DNA of 64,000 bases, taken from assembly GCA_045538515.1 (NCBI GenBank), contig JAZSRO010000089.1, forward strand, positions 22,840 to 86,839, in the 5' to 3' direction. This DNA comes from Acutalibacteraceae bacterium. GTDB lineage: Bacteria; Bacillota; Clostridia; Oscillospirales; Acutalibacteraceae. Under the pieces are notes generated by a model. The model searched no databases, was not told the DNA's origin, and saw nothing but the letters and a program-made list of their open reading frames with translations. The translations under genes and the position numbers were made by a program. Below, piece by piece: positions 47,279-61,201 of this stretch. Positions within the stretch are counted from its first letter, which is position 1. Every line of letters starts with the position of its first letter.

Positions 47279-47455
47279 AGTGATATTGCAAACTATCGTT
47301 TGCAGTGATATTTTTGCCTAACAGCAAAAGTGATATTGAAACCTTGCGGTTTCAGTGGTATTTTATTCGCCAACAAAACTCGCGAAGCGAATACCACTCG
47401 GCGTTAGCCGAATATCACTGCAAAGCAATACAACTCGCCTTTGACGAATAAAACT
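47279..47455 (-). repeat. Hairpin-spaced 9-mer array, copy B (AGTGATATT family; the inverse orientation is collinear with 60887-61057)
   Basis: Forward 9-mers lie at 47279, 47304, 47329 and 47354. Inverted 9-mers lie at 47390, 47411, 47427 and 47447. Spacers include GCAAAC-TATC-GTTTGC, TTTGC-CTAACA-GCAAA, GAAACC-TTGC-GGTTTC and CGGC-GTTA-GCCG. Confidence 0.8.
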
Positions 47456-47482
47456 GCCCAACTTCTTATAAAGAAGTTGGGC
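47456..47482 (-). terminator. Terminator of the 1024-aa glycosidase gene
   Basis: GCCCAACTTCTT-ATA-AAGAAGTTGGGC. On the minus strand it is followed by AGTTTTATT. Confidence 0.75.
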
Positions 47483-47499: not shown

Positions 47500-50400
47500 T
47501 TATTTCGTTTCGGTAATTCTGGGGGCGGAGAGGATGCCAAGCGGACGGAAGCGGTAACTCTCACTCCATTCTGCATCCTTTGTGTGCCACATATCAGGGC
47601 CAAGCCAAAAACGCTCTTCATCGGCGAGGTGTAGTGCACCGAAAGCATTATAGCGTTGACCGAGAAGCGTGAGTTTGAGCGTATGTTTACCCGCGGGTAA
47701 ACGTCCTAAATCAAGTTTATAAGGCGGATAGATTATATAATCCTTTTTGCCATTCAACTCTACCTTTATTGCGGCACCCGCATAGTGCGGCGCGGTCATT
47801 TCTACCCTGCCGCCTTTAGTTTCAATCTCCACATTATAGGTAATATTTCCGGTATAGTGTGCAAGACCTTGATGTGTTATATCGTCAAATCCGAGCAGCG
47901 TGGGTTTCTTTCCGATACTGCGGTGTTCGCCCTTGACGGTTACACCGAAATCTCCGAGCAGATAGCACCACTCAAGATTTATACGGCGGCCGAACGGCTG
48001 TGTGAGTTCGAGCACATTTTCGCCTTTTTTGAGTGTGGGAAGTGCGACAGTTTCAATGCTCTTGTCTACAAACCAACCGGTAGGCTCCGATTTTATAACC
48101 TTGCCGTTAAGCACGATTTTTGTTTCTCTTGCGTCCTCAAGTGCGAGTTTAACATTCTTAATCTTTTCGTCACACACGAAGGTATAGCAGAGATATACCG
48201 AATGGTCGGGCGCCTGTTTGCCGTAAACCCAAGGTTGTGTTACCCAACCGTCATTTTTAGGCCAACCGAGCGTCTTTCTTACGGCGTTATCAACACGCAT
48301 AATCTCGGTTTCGGGCATAAGGGGTCCGCCGTCAAGCGAATATTCCGCCTTATCAAGCACGAATGCATTGGGCTCATCAAGCGCAAATGAAACAAGTTTC
48401 GGCACTTTTACTGTGACGGTTTCGGTTTCTTTTTCTATTTCTGCTGCTGCGGGTACGCTGTTTCTATCGGTAAACTTGAGAAGAAGTGAATCCAAATCGT
48501 AAACAACCGTTTTTACTACGGTGTTTCCGTTTTCAATTTCCGAACAAATTGGCTTTATATCACCCGTCATTGTATCATAAAGCATTACGCCGTATTCGCC
48601 TTTTAGGGTAATCTTTATTTCCTGTTTTTGGGGAACGTCCTTGTTATACGGTTCTTCACAGTGTGCAATAAAGAGCCAACGGTCGTCACCGTCCTCGCGC
48701 AACTGGTGGATTAGGTCTTCGGTGCGTTCGCCTTTTTTATTGCGAATTTCAACCATACGCGCCGATGCTAATGCGTCCAGCACGCTTTCTTTCATAAAGC
48801 CTGTGCAGTTTGACTTTTCAAAAAGTGCTTTGCCGCGTTCGCTCGGTACGGCATTTTCGTAAATCGGTGCATTTCCAAGGAAAACAAGGTTTCCGCCCGC
48901 CTCTTTGAATGCTTCAAGCCTTTCGAGCGTGGTGCTGCGCAGAGTTTCACAGGCGGGTACTATGATTGTATCGTATTCCATAACGCCGACCTTAAGCGGT
49001 GCGCCGCCCCTTTCGCACTGTGTGGGCAACAATGATTCGCAGATAAAATCAAAATCTATATTACCTGTAAGCAACCACTTTGTAAGATTTTTGAAGTTAT
49101 CATCCATCTGTTTGCGGATTGCGGCGGTCTGCTCCTCAGGTCCGAAATGGAGCCAATAACTTTCAATCGGATGAATAACGCCGACCTTTACAAGCGCTTT
49201 TCCGCGCGTAAGCGCCGTATGTATACGCGAATAATGGTCTTCTACAACACCATAATCCTTGCACCACGGCGACTGATAGTTAAAGGTTGCGGGATAATCG
49301 TGTTTTGCTTCGCCTTTCATTGAAACCCAAGAAAGATGGTGTACGCGTGTGGTAACGCCCAGCGCCGCCTGCCAGTCACCCTGGAATTTATGTCCTCTGA
49401 AATCAAAATCCCAGCCTGTAACGCCGTAAAGTTCGCTCAGAACGCCCTCGCGGCCGTACTGGTGCGATGCCGACTGTGCCTGTTTAACGGTGGTAAGTTC
49501 CACCTGATTGCAGAGCATATCAACGCCCGGCAACTGAAAACTACGGTACGAACGCATTGCTTCACCCAACGCCTGTGACTGACTTTCAAGCGAGGGTTCT
49601 TCCATCATATGACCTGTTAGCATAAGTCCGTGCTCTTGACACCAATTGCCGCATTGGTCGGCAAAGGCAGAGGCGAAAAGTTCTGCCACATGGTCGTGAT
49701 AATGATAACGAACGGTGGAAATCTTGCCGTCAGGCAACTCCCACACGAGTTCGGGCAGATGTGCTACCAAATCTTCGCCGTATTTTGCTGCAAAAGTTTC
49801 CTGTATGTCGTGTGTCCAAGGCAACAACACCTTTTTGCTTTCTTTTGCAAAACCGAGTCTTGTTTTATGTGTAAACTGCGGTTCGTCCGTGAACATCGTG
49901 GGTATAAGTGTACCGAAATCGTCACCGACCACCTCATTATAGCGCTCATAAGTAACCTCGATAAAACGGCGCATTGACGCGGGGTCGAGCGTGTTAATAT
50001 ATGTTTGGTCGTTAAACCACGGAGTCGGGTCAGGCTCTTCCATATAAGCGTACCATTTAACGCCTTCGGCTTCATCATTTTCGGAGAGCAGTTTGGCGCT
50101 TTTAAGGCAGCCGTTTTCATCCAGAACGATATCATAACAAGCGACTAATTCGTCCTTGTTTTCCATATCCTCTCTGTGCAGTCTTTTGATTTCTTCTTCA
50201 ATACTGCGGTCCATAAAGAGAAGATATTTTTCGCGGTAACGCGGGTCTTTTGTAACAATACCGCCCGCCGCGCCCGAGGGCCAACGGTCCTCGTCATAGA
50301 GATATGCGAGCATATCCTCATTTCTCATTTTTTCAACACAGGATTTGATTAAATCCATATGTTCGTCACTCAAATATTCGGTTGCCATACCCGTACGGAC

Positions 50401-50574
50401 ATGCATATGTGCGCCGCCCATACCCATTTGTTTCAGGGTGTCAATCTGGCTTAAAAGTTCTTGCCTGTCGAGTTCGCAGTTCCAAGCCCAGAACGGTGTA
50501 CCGCGATAGGCACTTGTTGGATTTTTGAAAAGTTCTGCCGAAAGAGATGCATCTTTACTCTTGTTATACAGCAT
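47500..50574 (-). CDS. Large (1024 aa) intracellular glycoside hydrolase, family uncertain (possibly GH106-like rhamnosidase type)
   Basis: The N-terminal RGTPFWAWNCELDRQELLSQIDTLKQMGMGGAHMHVRTG...AYLYDEDRWPSGAAGG pattern is one I associate with large TIM-barrel glycosidases. Several beta-sandwich-like C-terminal domains follow. There is no signal peptide. Confidence 0.55.
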   Translation of the reverse strand: MLYNKSKDASLSAELFKNPTSAYRGTPFWAWNCELDRQELLSQIDTLKQMGMGGAHMHVRTGMATEYLSDEHMDLIKSCVEKMRNEDMLAYLYDEDRWPSGAAGGIVTKDPRYREKYLLFMDRSIEEEIKRLHREDMENKDELVACYDIVLDENGCLKSAKLLSENDEAEGVKWYAYMEEPDPTPWFNDQTYINTLDPASMRRFIEVTYERYNEVVGDDFGTLIPTMFTDEPQFTHKTRLGFAKESKKVLLPWTHDIQETFAAKYGEDLVAHLPELVWELPDGKISTVRYHYHDHVAELFASAFADQCGNWCQEHGLMLTGHMMEEPSLESQSQALGEAMRSYRSFQLPGVDMLCNQVELTTVKQAQSASHQYGREGVLSELYGVTGWDFDFRGHKFQGDWQAALGVTTRVHHLSWVSMKGEAKHDYPATFNYQSPWCKDYGVVEDHYSRIHTALTRGKALVKVGVIHPIESYWLHFGPEEQTAAIRKQMDDNFKNLTKWLLTGNIDFDFICESLLPTQCERGGAPLKVGVMEYDTIIVPACETLRSTTLERLEAFKEAGGNLVFLGNAPIYENAVPSERGKALFEKSNCTGFMKESVLDALASARMVEIRNKKGERTEDLIHQLREDGDDRWLFIAHCEEPYNKDVPQKQEIKITLKGEYGVMLYDTMTGDIKPICSEIENGNTVVKTVVYDLDSLLLKFTDRNSVPAAAEIEKETETVTVKVPKLVSFALDEPNAFVLDKAEYSLDGGPLMPETEIMRVDNAVRKTLGWPKNDGWVTQPWVYGKQAPDHSVYLCYTFVCDEKIKNVKLALEDARETKIVLNGKVIKSEPTGWFVDKSIETVALPTLKKGENVLELTQPFGRRINLEWCYLLGDFGVTVKGEHRSIGKKPTLLGFDDITHQGLAHYTGNITYNVEIETKGGRVEMTAPHYAGAAIKVELNGKKDYIIYPPYKLDLGRLPAGKHTLKLTLLGQRYNAFGALHLADEERFWLGPDMWHTKDAEWSESYRFRPLGILSAPRITETK

Positions 50575-56468: not shown

Positions 56469-56554
56469 GGGAGAGTTCCCGAGTGGCCAAAGGGGACAGA
56501 CTGTAAATCTGCTGCGTAATCGCTTCGATGGTTCGAATCCGTCCTCTCCCACCA
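56469..56554 (+). tRNA. tRNA-Tyr (anticodon GUA), class II with a long variable arm
   Basis: Acceptor GGGAGAG/CTCTCCC, anticodon loop CTGTAAA, a long variable arm, T-arm GATGG-TTCGAAT-CCGTC, and an encoded CCA. Confidence 0.9.
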
Positions 56555-56708
56555 AATTAGAAGAGTACCACCGTAAGGTTGGTGCTCTTTTAATTTTTGG
56601 CTGAGGGGACGAGATGAGAACAGGGTGTGCCGTCCGCAGACGGCAAAAACAGTTCGGGGAACTGTTTTTAACCCGCGGTCCTTTAGGCGAATCCGTCCTC
56701 TCCCACCA
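56552..56708 (+). repeat. 157-bp direct repeat, copy R157-a: tRNA terminator + structured segment + pseudo tRNA-Tyr 3' end
   Basis: 156 of 157 nt are identical to 60696-60852. It contains the bulged terminator AAGAGTACCACC-GTAA-GGTTGGTGCTCTT-TTAATTTTT, hairpins GCCGTC-CGCA-GACGGC and AAACAGTTC-GGGG-AACTGTTT, and ends in GGCGAATCCGTCCTCTCCCACCA (the tRNA-Tyr 3' end lacking TT in the T-loop). Confidence 0.9.
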
Positions 56709-56744
56709 AAAAATCGACTTGTGAAAACAAGTCGATTTTTTTAT

Positions 56745-56933
56745 CCATTGCGAAAGCAATGGTATATCATCAACGATAGCGTTGCTATCGTTGTATCTCA
56801 TCAGTCCGTCAGGACTGTATATCATCACGCGTCAGCGTGTAGCAAAAAAACTTTCGCAATGATGATATACAAAACTCCGTTTTGATGATATGCAATTCCT
56901 TTCGGAATAGATGATATACAATGCTTCGCATTG
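56745..56933 (+). repeat. Hairpin-spaced 10-mer array, copy C (TATATCATCA family)
   Basis: Forward 10-mers lie at 56763, 56794 and 56818. Inverted TGATGATATA-type 10-mers lie at 56860, 56883 and 56909. Seven distinct mini-hairpins lie between them, for example CCATTGC-GAAA-GCAATGG, ACGATAGC-GTT-GCTATCGT and ATTCC-TTTC-GGAAT. Confidence 0.8.
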
Positions 56934-57029
56934 ATTTGCTTGTAAATTTATGCTACAATAAATTAAAGGCGGTGATACTGTGCAAAAAAAGGCAAGAAAA
57001 AACTTTTTTTAATTTCTCTGTTCCTTATT

Positions 57030-60609: not shown

Positions 60610-60695
60610 ACAGGTTGTTCCATAAAATTTAAAATATGTAGTGGTTTAAACACATAGGTCACAAATTCAAAAGGGTTTGAATTTGTGCTTCCCTT

Positions 60696-60852
60696 CCAAA
60701 TTAGAAGAGTACCACCGTAAGGTTGGTGCTCTTTTAATTTTTGGCTGAGGGGACGAGATGAGAACAGGGTGTGCCGTCCGCAGACGGCAAAAACAGTTCG
60801 GGGAACTGTTTTTAACCCGTGGTCCTTTAGGCGAATCCGTCCTCTCCCACCA
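60696..60852 (+). repeat. 157-bp direct repeat, copy R157-b
   Basis: It differs from 56552-56708 only at 60820 (T versus C at 56676). It is followed by the hairpin ATCCGACTT-GTTTCGAT-AAGTCGGAT. Confidence 0.9.
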
Positions 60853-60886
60853 GAAAATCCGACTTGTTTCGATAAGTCGGATTTTC

Positions 60887-61057
60887 AGTTATATTCGCCT
60901 TCGGCGAGTTATATTGCTACGCAGTGATGTTCGGCTAAAGCCGAGTGATATTGCCCTTCGGGCAGTTAAGGAGCGAATATAATACCACTGAAACCGCAGG
61001 TTTCAATATCACTTTCGCGTAGCGAAAGTATCACTGTGCCAAGGGCACAATAGCACT
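60887..61057 (+). repeat. Hairpin-spaced 9-mer array, copy E (AGTGATATT family)
   Basis: Forward 9-mers lie at 60887, 60907, 60923 and 60944. Inverted 9-mers lie at 60981, 61005, 61027 and 61049. Spacers are CGCC-TTC-GGCG, CGGC-TAAA-GCCG, GCCC-TTCG-GGC, GAAACC-GCA-GGTTTC, TTCGC-GTA-GCGAA and GTGCC-AAG-GGCAC. Confidence 0.8.
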
Positions 61058-61201
61058 TGAAATGTAATGGTTCGAACATATAGGTCAAAAATTCAAAAGC
61101 CTTCGGTTTTGCCGCCTCCCTTTACACAAGGGAGGCTTTTTATTGCAAAAATCCGAAATATGTGCTATCGTTTTAGTAACATATATTTTGAGGGTGATAT
61201 A

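Follow-up and report, generated by a model that had tools for sequence, protein, structure and literature searches.

Gut-1 hairpin arrays of gut Clostridia are two-armed, REP/BIME-like extragenic repeats at transcription-unit ends

A 64,000-nt stretch of an Acutalibacteraceae genome (contig JAZSRO010000089.1 of assembly GCA_045538515.1, positions 22,840 to 86,839; the whole stretch is called the window below and is numbered from its first letter) contains at 60887-61057 an array of conserved 9-mers with hairpin-forming spacers, to which an initial annotation had drawn attention. We show that this element, copy A, is a member of the Rfam family Gut-1 and is built of two such hairpin arrays in head-to-head orientation. 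Gut-1 proves to be a dispersed extragenic repeat of Oscillospirales-type gut Clostridia that resembles the repetitive extragenic palindromic (REP) sequences and bacterial interspersed mosaic elements (BIMEs), and its copies are found at transcription-unit ends, preceded directly by a terminator hairpin, a stop codon, or a transfer RNA (tRNA) or transfer-messenger RNA (tmRNA) gene. The function that we infer is more tentative: the best explanation at present is that this array forms a two-way barrier at transcription-unit ends.

Two hairpin-spaced arrays in the window

Copy A carries eight 9-mers, four forward and four inverted, each within one mismatch of the consensus AGTGATATT, and all of them lie where they had originally been placed; the consensus given with them needs a qualification, the first two forward 9-mers being AGTTATATT. 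In the window as a whole, AGTGATATT is matched with at most one mismatch 38 times, compared with 17.5 ± 4.3 times in shuffled sequences (0 of 100 shuffles reach 38), and 14 of the 38 matches are concentrated in two loci of ~175 nt, copy A and positions 47279-47456 (copy B). The spacers between the 9-mers of copy A are self-complementary and 7-15 nt long. As the initial annotation had noticed, the reverse complement of copy B is collinear with copy A unit by unit: the CGGC/GCCG and GAAACC/GGTTTC hairpins are common to both copies, and two stems differ on both sides, TTCGC/GCGAA in copy A corresponding to TTTGC/GCAAA in copy B and GTGCC/GGCAC to GCAAAC/GTTTGC. The two copies are mutually inverted and lie within 13.5 kb. 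Both copies fold far more stably than shuffled sequences, with z = -7.55 for the plus strand of copy A, z = -7.58 for its minus strand and z = -8.23 for copy B.

Two points of the first description had to be revised. The arms had been thought to share only the 9-mers; the 12-nt left end of copy A, GTTATATTCGCC (60888-60899), is also complementary to the centre AGCGAATATAAT (60972-60983). The loops had been likened to UUCG and GNRA loops; they are mostly 3-nt (TTC, TAC, GCA) or GNNA-type, and canonical UUCG tetraloops are not the rule. One spacer of copy A, GCTACGC, is the complement of the loop in TTCGCGTAGCGAA.

Assignment to the Gut-1 family

The element had at first seemed to belong to no named repeat or noncoding RNA family. 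Arm 1 of copy A matches the Gut-1 RNA of Rfam (RF01706) at 60886-60956 on the plus strand with 50.9 bits, the gathering score being 50, and arm 1 of 18 related loci scores 52-68 bits. In a permissive scan, below the 50-bit threshold, Gut-1 is also matched by arm 2 of copy A on the opposite strand (60977-61058, 37.3 bits) and by arm 1 of copy B (47386-47456, minus strand, 38.6 bits); at the related loci arm 2 is above threshold on the opposite strand in 3 of the 18. The hallmarks of the family are present, namely three consecutive hairpins, conserved GUGA(A/U)AU linkers and covarying stems (h2-h7). In a supplementary alignment that includes flanks, the flanks of at least two Gut-1 seeds, BAAZ01000095 and BAAZ01025322, contain the whole two-arm element including its centre. 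A match to a known REP, BIME or miniature inverted-repeat transposable element (MITE) family had been named as a finding that would overturn the original interpretation; the match obtained is to a known noncoding-RNA motif family, and to no REP, BIME or MITE family in the stricter sense.

The Gut-1 motif was described by Weinberg et al. (2010, Genome Biol 11:R31; PMC2864571), who graded it a likely RNA from covariation. Beyond that paper, a literature search on Gut-1, its 9-mers and REP elements in these taxa found nothing. The published repeated unit is the same as here, a hairpin followed by an (A)GUGA(U/A)AUU linker, and the original consensus linker reads GUGAAAU. The published motif differs in covering one arm only (77 model positions, three hairpins), whereas the whole element described here is ~175 nt long, and in having been presented as a small-RNA gene found 'in human gut only', without a host, whereas here it is a multi-copy extragenic repeat assigned to named metagenome-assembled genomes from the guts of humans and ruminants.

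Conserved architecture and covariation

A scan with the pattern of the centre, taking one genome per species, extended the search beyond the two copies of the window and revealed the same ~175-nt architecture at more than 119 loci in gut genomes, from which 98 complete copies were analysed and 92 were aligned. A second scan of metagenomes with the arm-2 pattern gave more true arrays, mixed with unrelated tandem repeats. The complete copies are 163-188 nt long and are built from repeats of one unit, in which a short G+C-rich hairpin, variable in sequence, precedes the nearly invariant 9-mer AGTGATATT. Every related copy is preceded on its 5' side by a 12-13-bp leader hairpin whose sequence differs from copy to copy; then come C-AGTTATATT, hairpin h1 (CGCC-loop-GGCG), three more units of 9-mer and hairpin, AGTT with 3-9 nt, the centre GGCGAATATAAT, and three hairpins alternating with AATATCACT. 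The centre overlaps the first inverted 9-mer and is nearly invariant in the 98 copies. Forward units always precede inverted units, and the usual count is 4 + 4.

Applied to the alignment of 92 sequences, RNAalifold recovers h2-h7 and a long-range 12-bp helix, P1, that joins the left end with the centre. Standard pairs occupy 97.9% of the cells, compared with 80.1% in shuffles and 37-51% when the partners are slid; 666 cells are changed on both sides, compared with 185 in shuffles; two-sided changes occur in 28 of the 44 pairs; and the covariation score is 0.43, compared with 0.10 in shuffles and 0.03-0.10 in the slid controls. The early impression that hairpins are kept while their sequence drifts is thus well borne out. 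The stems, of which 126 are distinct, vary freely in sequence and are more than 90% Watson-Crick. Loops evolve far faster than stems, the CGCC stem having 20 different loops in 86 copies, yet among 450 unique hairpins they keep T as their first letter on the AGTGATATT strand; loop length alternates between 3 and 4 nt.

Covariation extends to P1, in which TTAT/ATAA is replaced by TTTT/AAAA in at least 10 copies collected without the centre constraint, and single copies show TTTGCC/GGCAAA, C/G and T/A double changes. Copy A has the TTAT/ATAA type, and in copy B the AAAA of the centre pairs with the TTTT of its own left end, a two-sided change relative to copy A; the presence of both types in one genome, and indeed in one window, is more readily explained by base pairing than by a co-evolving binding protein. 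P1 and h1 cannot form together because the 5' strand of P1 overlaps the first 9-mer (F1) and the 5' half of h1, and RNAalifold prefers P1 to h1. The parts of the two copies in the window are as follows.

Copy A, 60853..60886, plus strand: leader hairpin GAAAATCCGACTT gtttcgat AAGTCGGATTTTC, a terminator-like scan match with an A-run 5' and a T-run 3', abutting the first 9-mer
Copy A, 60887..60963, plus strand: arm 1, with 9-mers F1-F4 at 60887, 60907, 60923 and 60944; Gut-1 match, covarying stems
Copy A, plus strand: hairpin spacers of arm 1, h1 60896-60906, h2 60916-60922, h3 60932-60943, h4 60953-60963
Copy A, 60888..60899, plus strand: 5' strand of P1, GTTATATTCGCC, overlapping F1 and the 5' half of h1 and covarying with the centre
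Copy A, 60964..60983, plus strand: AGTT, short linker and centre 12-mer AGCGAATATAAT (60972-60983), which is the 3' strand of P1 and overlaps the first inverted 9-mer
Copy A, 60981..61057, minus strand: arm 2, with inverted 9-mers at 60981, 61005, 61027 and 61049; covarying stems
Copy A, minus strand: hairpins of arm 2, h5 60990-61004, h6 61014-61026, h7 61036-61048
Copy B, 47456..47482, minus strand: leader hairpin GCCCAACTTCTT tat AAGAAGTTGGGC, a terminator-like scan match
Copy B, 47381..47455, minus strand: arm 1, with 9-mers at 47447-47455, 47427-47435, 47411-47419 and 47390-47398
Copy B, 47443-47454, minus strand: 5' strand of P1, GTTTTATTCGTC
Copy B, 47360..47380, minus strand: AGTT, linker and centre GGCGAATAAAAT (47360-47371)
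Copy B, 47279..47362, plus strand: arm 2, with 9-mers that read AGTGATATT on the plus strand of the window at 47279, 47304, 47329 and 47354

Two other structures were considered and rejected. One long foldback, in which forward 9-mers pair with inverted ones, is contradicted by nested pairs that are no more complementary than non-nested ones, and by position 4 of F1, which is T in 99% of copies with the matching A in its partner in only ~10%. A promoter in the centre was not adopted because a start there would exclude P1; on the top strand TATAAT is present but lacks a -35 box or TG, and on the bottom strand TTGAAA-16-TGgTATTAT occurs only where h5 is of the GAAACC type.

The covariation also bears on a protein that would bind the 4 + 4 9-bp sites in duplex DNA and act as a roadblock, an insulator or a nucleoid landmark after highly transcribed genes. 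The strictly conserved 9-mers with their convergent layout around an A+T-rich centre would suit such an array, as would stems that are almost purely Watson-Crick with wobbles free of strand bias, and the placement of copies beside tRNA and tmRNA genes. Binding to the duplex, however, leaves unexplained why hairpin spacers are kept by two-sided changes, why P1 covaries and why two P1 types exist in one genome; moreover, the spacing of the sites varies over 16-25 bp and occasionally reaches 40-50 bp, so that they are not helically phased. Of all the alternatives we give this one the least credence.

Distribution and genomic context

Among the matches listed, the named records are all gut metagenome-assembled genomes, labelled Acutalibacteraceae, Oscillospiraceae, Ruminococcus, Faecousia, Candidatus Avispirillum, Ruminococcaceae, or just Clostridia/Eubacteriales; the carrier families belong to the GTDB order Oscillospirales. 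The genomes come from human, goat, sheep, deer, cattle and reindeer. Several of them have at least 3-4 copies each among the matches listed, a second copy lies within 8 kb at about 1 in 10 loci, and contig ends often fall inside arrays. Single-arm arrays are frequent in the metagenome assembly ERZ808278, where at least 11 lie on a few contigs and combine ~10 stem types in different orders. At its loci L174, L175, L184, L208, L244 and L259 (L numbers denote our loci) single-arm arrays of 4-7 units recur about every few kb; these arrays each end in cgcacNNNgtgcg-AGTTGTGGAATATT, and several begin at or overlap the stop codon of the upstream gene.

The gene neighbourhoods of the 119 loci differ and the loci are not orthologous. 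Clustering of the open reading frames (ORFs) around them revealed no recurrent neighbour protein (transposase, integrase, Rep or Cas); the commonest families are housekeeping ones, the largest being an ABC-F ATPase found at 10 of the 119 loci, ~2.7 kb away. The window itself encodes LytR-CpsA-Psr, YitT and similar Firmicute proteins, and an exact-sequence look-up of the protein neighbouring copy A gave no record. A plasmid search gave no match, and 1 of 16 pattern matches in viral contigs was a true array, the rest being unrelated tandem repeats. A phage origin was rejected, since the sole match in a phage database, an unverified contig, is a tRNA-Arg locus that is itself a Gut-1 seed. This contig (L261; MT835815.1, 'UNVERIFIED: Bacteriophage sp.') carries tRNA-Arg(ACG), a terminator, a two-arm Gut-1 element and the gene of a four-helix-bundle protein in a layout identical to that of L101 and of the seed BAAZ01025322, and is probably bacterial DNA in a virome data set.

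The position at transcription-unit ends is seen in several ways. In nearly a quarter of the two-arm copies (22 of 98) a tRNA gene (nine tRNA species in all) or a tmRNA gene reads towards the array and ends 29-40 nt before it, only the leader hairpin intervening; on the right side a tRNA is found in just 1 of the 98. Where the left neighbour is a protein-coding gene, it is directed towards the array 32 times and in the opposite direction 13 times. In copy B the leader hairpin is located just 3' of the stop codon of a glycoside-hydrolase-like gene of 1024 aa (47500-50574, minus strand). Single-arm arrays begin -2 to +51 nt after a same-strand stop codon in 15 of 38 cases and have a convergent gene at their other end in 9 of 38. 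On the strand reading into each arm, a terminator-like score is given to the leader hairpin taken together with F1 and to several of the internal hairpins taken with the U-rich 9-mers that follow them.

Such a context has to be reconciled with any free-standing small RNA (sRNA), the type under which Rfam lists Gut-1 (Gene; sRNA), in which the hairpins would display single-stranded AGUGAUAUU sites and titrate a protein in the manner of a CsrB/RsmZ-type sponge, the arms being two convergent genes. The near invariance of the 9-mer across bacterial families while the stems drift and the stereotyped four units per arm would be in keeping with a sponge; one single-arm array (L174) lies directly behind a perfect extended -10 promoter, and covariation was the ground on which the motif was graded a likely RNA (PMC2864571). 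Promoters directly upstream are nevertheless rare, an extended -10 element being found just upstream of only 1 of 51 single-arm arrays and 4 of 195 paired arms, which weakens this explanation. The arrays start at stop codons or directly after terminators, their number per genome (tens or more) and the variety of their surroundings are not what a dedicated regulator gene would show, and their stems have no G.U excess. We regard such an sRNA as improbable.

Comparison with known systems

REP/BIME elements of Enterobacteria and Pseudomonas, which occur with the RAYT (REP-associated tyrosine transposase) transposases, are short multi-copy extragenic palindromes that cluster in arrays with units of both orientations, lie mostly at gene 3' ends and fold on either strand; whether REPs act as DNA or as RNA has long been debated. 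Gut-1 arrays share with them the extragenic location, the multiple copies (our counts per genome being a lower bound), the palindromic structure, the grouping into arrays with units of both orientations, the folding on either strand, the position at gene 3' ends and the lack of target-site duplications. They differ in two respects: in REPs the palindrome itself is conserved and is flanked by a GTAG-type tetranucleotide, whereas in Gut-1 the stems vary and the 9-mer between the hairpins is conserved; and Gut-1 units run four one way and then four the other way, whereas REP units alternate. A link with RAYTs was not seen, as no transposase-like family recurs in the 8-kb blocks around the arrays.

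Likeness to intrinsic terminators is partial. The leader hairpins qualify as putative terminators, having an A-run and a T-run, and internal hairpins pass a loose scan; however, a Gut-1 element has 7-8 internal hairpins, their tail is AGUGAUAUU rather than a clean U-tract, and the 9-mer is conserved at positions that a terminator would not need. Palindrome-associated elements derived from IS200/IS605 and the attC sites of integrons likewise keep structure while sequence varies, lack target-site duplications and have strand-specific hairpin features, but they consist of one or two hairpins with a known enzyme, whereas here seven small hairpins are combined with a long-range helix, and no TnpA or integrase linked to the arrays was found at the 119 loci. 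Two further classes had been dismissed at the outset, and we agree. The ends AGTTATATT and AATATCACT are inverted repeats, as in a MITE, but no target-site duplication of 4 bp or more was found around the 62 copies examined, so the element is no classical MITE. Nor is it CRISPR-like: its repeats are 9 nt long, where the direct repeats of CRISPR arrays measure about 23 nt or more, and stand in both orientations, its spacers are hairpins of 7-16 nt that are common to different genomes, and no neighbour protein recurs.

Strand asymmetry and turnover of the arrays

The evidence on whether the structures act as RNA or as single-stranded DNA (ssDNA) conflicts. The AGTGATATT strand, the one that Rfam adopts, has several features that would suit an RNA. 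It has the same sense as the gene or tRNA that lies upstream. Successive 9-mers on it can extend the hairpin between them by 'feet', the ATT at the end of one pairing, by way of an invariant T.G, with the AGT at the start of the next. When the feet are counted, 378 of 486 hairpins are more stable as RNA on this strand than on the other, and the innermost pair of the feet covaries, being T-A in 78 copies and G-C in 12.

Other features speak against the AGTGATATT strand as RNA. Structures selected as RNA usually show a clear excess of G.U, whereas the wobbles on the AGTGATATT strand of the 450 unique hairpins (G.T 35, A.C 48) carry no RNA signature and do not single out a strand. On the AATATCACT strand the loops read G..A (GNA 84, GNRA 47, GNYA 38) with no preference for a purine at position 3, and h2 reads GCGAAGC; loops and stems of this kind seem nearer to very stable DNA mini-hairpins such as d(GCGAAGC) than to the GNRA loops of RNA. 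Folding energies computed for the spacers alone favour the AATATCACT strand (185-202 hairpins, compared with 59-68 for the other strand). The rule that G..A loops lie on the ATATCA-bearing strand holds also in a second kind of array in the window, described below, in which the order of the arms is reversed.

One alternative builds on these observations. The hairpins and P1 would form in ssDNA on the AATATCACT strand and be read by a hairpin-specific enzyme encoded elsewhere, which may also have spread the arrays, any effects on transcription being secondary; candidates would be HUH/Y1 enzymes such as a REP-associated transposase, a TnpA of the IS200/IS605 type, or an enzyme of another kind. 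The strand-asymmetric GNA/GNNA loops closed by C-G, the GCGAAGC reading of h2, the absence of a G.U excess over A.C and the many different loops found on one stem all agree with it, as does the lack of target-site duplications, which is likewise a property of IS200/IS605 and REP elements. So does the turnover of the arrays. The left flank is nearly always ..TC|AGTT, and copies duplicated within a genome (L006, L102) are identical from F1 to the last 9-mer (R4) with sharp ends. For the 1024-aa protein beside copy B the nearest relatives are 88-89% identical. At the orthologous site the relative at 88% has an array, cut off by the end of its contig, that is of a different subfamily with the other P1 type and has an entirely different leader hairpin; at 89% identity the relative's contig runs out 9 nt past the gene; and two relatives at ~62% have ordinary, array-free intergenic regions there.

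On the other hand, no HUH or transposase gene recurs in the 8-kb blocks around any of the 119 loci, no pair of empty and filled sites with exact boundaries was found, and the orientation of the arrays tracks the neighbouring gene rather than one direction of replication, L175 having arrays on both strands. We consider an ssDNA element unlikely, and rank it first among the alternatives, ahead of the sponge sRNA and the duplex-DNA array. A bolder form of it is more doubtful still: the Gut-1 arrays would not be RNAs at all but the Firmicute counterpart of REP/RAYT-type systems acting through ssDNA, in which rows of mini-hairpins with GNA/GNNA loops on the AATATCACT strand, closed by P1, would be read by a putative ssDNA-acting enzyme not linked to the arrays, with the 9-mer as its recognition or cleavage site. 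As leads only, we mention that the TGATA core of the 9-mer is like the nick sites of rolling-circle systems and that the complement of the 9-mer resembles the TAATATTAC nonanucleotide.

Functional interpretation

We return to the two-way barrier at the ends of transcription units, which we put forward with reservations. Transcripts that enter an arm from either side would fold into a row of stable hairpins, and such rows would stop or insulate read-through and block RNA decay in the 3'-to-5' direction. If they do so from either side, the convergent pair of arms would therefore constitute a two-way barrier between adjacent transcription units, in which the conserved 9-mers may serve as single-stranded recognition sites for a putative factor common to these bacteria. 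We favour this interpretation because of the 3'-end placement of the copies and the terminator-like scores on the strand that enters each arm.

Several observations weigh against it. The two-arm copies lie 3' of a terminator, so that only read-through would reach them; the orientation bias of the single-arm arrays is modest (15 versus 9); and a plain barrier would not need a 9-mer conserved so strictly across bacterial families. To these must be added the strand evidence given above, namely the wobble counts without an RNA signature, the G..A loops of the AATATCACT strand with their indifference to purines at position 3, and the spacer-only energies that favour the same strand.

Neighbouring repeats and other modules

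The second kind of hairpin-spaced array in the window occupies 56747-56932, directly behind a tRNA-Thr/tRNA-Tyr operon. It consists of three GTATATCATCA units (minus strand; 56762, 56793 and 56817) followed by three TGATGATATAC units (plus strand; 56860, 56883 and 56909) with small-hairpin spacers, and the order of its arms is the reverse of that in the Gut-1 element; an Rfam scan of this array gave no match. Another array with a different linker, AGTGATGTT/AACATCACT, forward then inverted, is found at 7310-7480 of L094, in the right flank of its Gut-1 element, and this difference suggests that the family may have several 'specificities'. A repeated intergenic element that contains GGATTCCCACG...CTCGGAATGACA lies beside the single-arm arrays of L175, L212, L154 and L167.

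The segments 56551-56720 and 60696-60870 form a near-identical direct repeat of ~170 bp with 2 mismatches. Each contains a terminator hairpin followed by a strongly folding segment of ~115 nt, closed by GAGGGGACG/CGTCCTCTC, that ends in the last 20 nt of tRNA-Tyr (GAATCCGTCCTCTCCCACCA); the copy at 56551 directly follows the real tRNA-Tyr gene. The repeat is reminiscent of the distal repeats (rtT) of tyrT in E. coli. Neither copy was called by ARAGORN or Rfam, and a tRNA or tmRNA gene upstream of copy A was rejected on the same scans, the region being this duplicated tRNA-Tyr-tail repeat.

A motif of 26 nt, ATGTARTGGTTYRAACAYATAGGTCA, is repeated directly at 60636-60661 and 61062-61087, ~250 nt upstream and 5 nt downstream of copy A. 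It also follows the arrays in L007, L028, L088 and L089, often succeeded by a short helix ending in CCA and then by a terminator. Many arrays are followed by a conserved, outward-facing cassette of a promoter and a ribosome-binding site, TTGCnn-17-TGCTATAAT ... AAGGCGGTGAT-n-ATG, which occurs in the window at 56938-56985 and in the right flanks of L002, L004, L019, L026, L027, L040, L062, L104 and L110; it precedes unrelated small ORFs resembling membrane or secreted proteins and may be another mobile module.

Conclusions

Since 2010 Rfam has carried Gut-1 as an orphan motif 'from human gut only', without a host or a function. To this description our analysis adds the two-arm architecture, the covarying helix that closes it, the REP-like habit, with its strong preference for positions behind tRNA and tmRNA genes, and a host range that now comprises Acutalibacteraceae, Oscillospiraceae, Ruminococcus and Faecousia from human and ruminant guts. 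In practical terms, Gut-1 arrays break metagenome assemblies and run the risk of being mis-annotated as small-RNA genes or phage. Should the strand paradox resolve to DNA, the arrays would represent a new ssDNA-level repeat system in Firmicutes, and if an enzyme acts on them, Gut-1 would count as an ssDNA element of a new kind, domesticated or selfish, directed at the regions that follow terminators and tRNA genes. With its hosts, anatomy and habit described, Gut-1 has been turned from an unplaceable motif into one that can be tested in culturable relatives.

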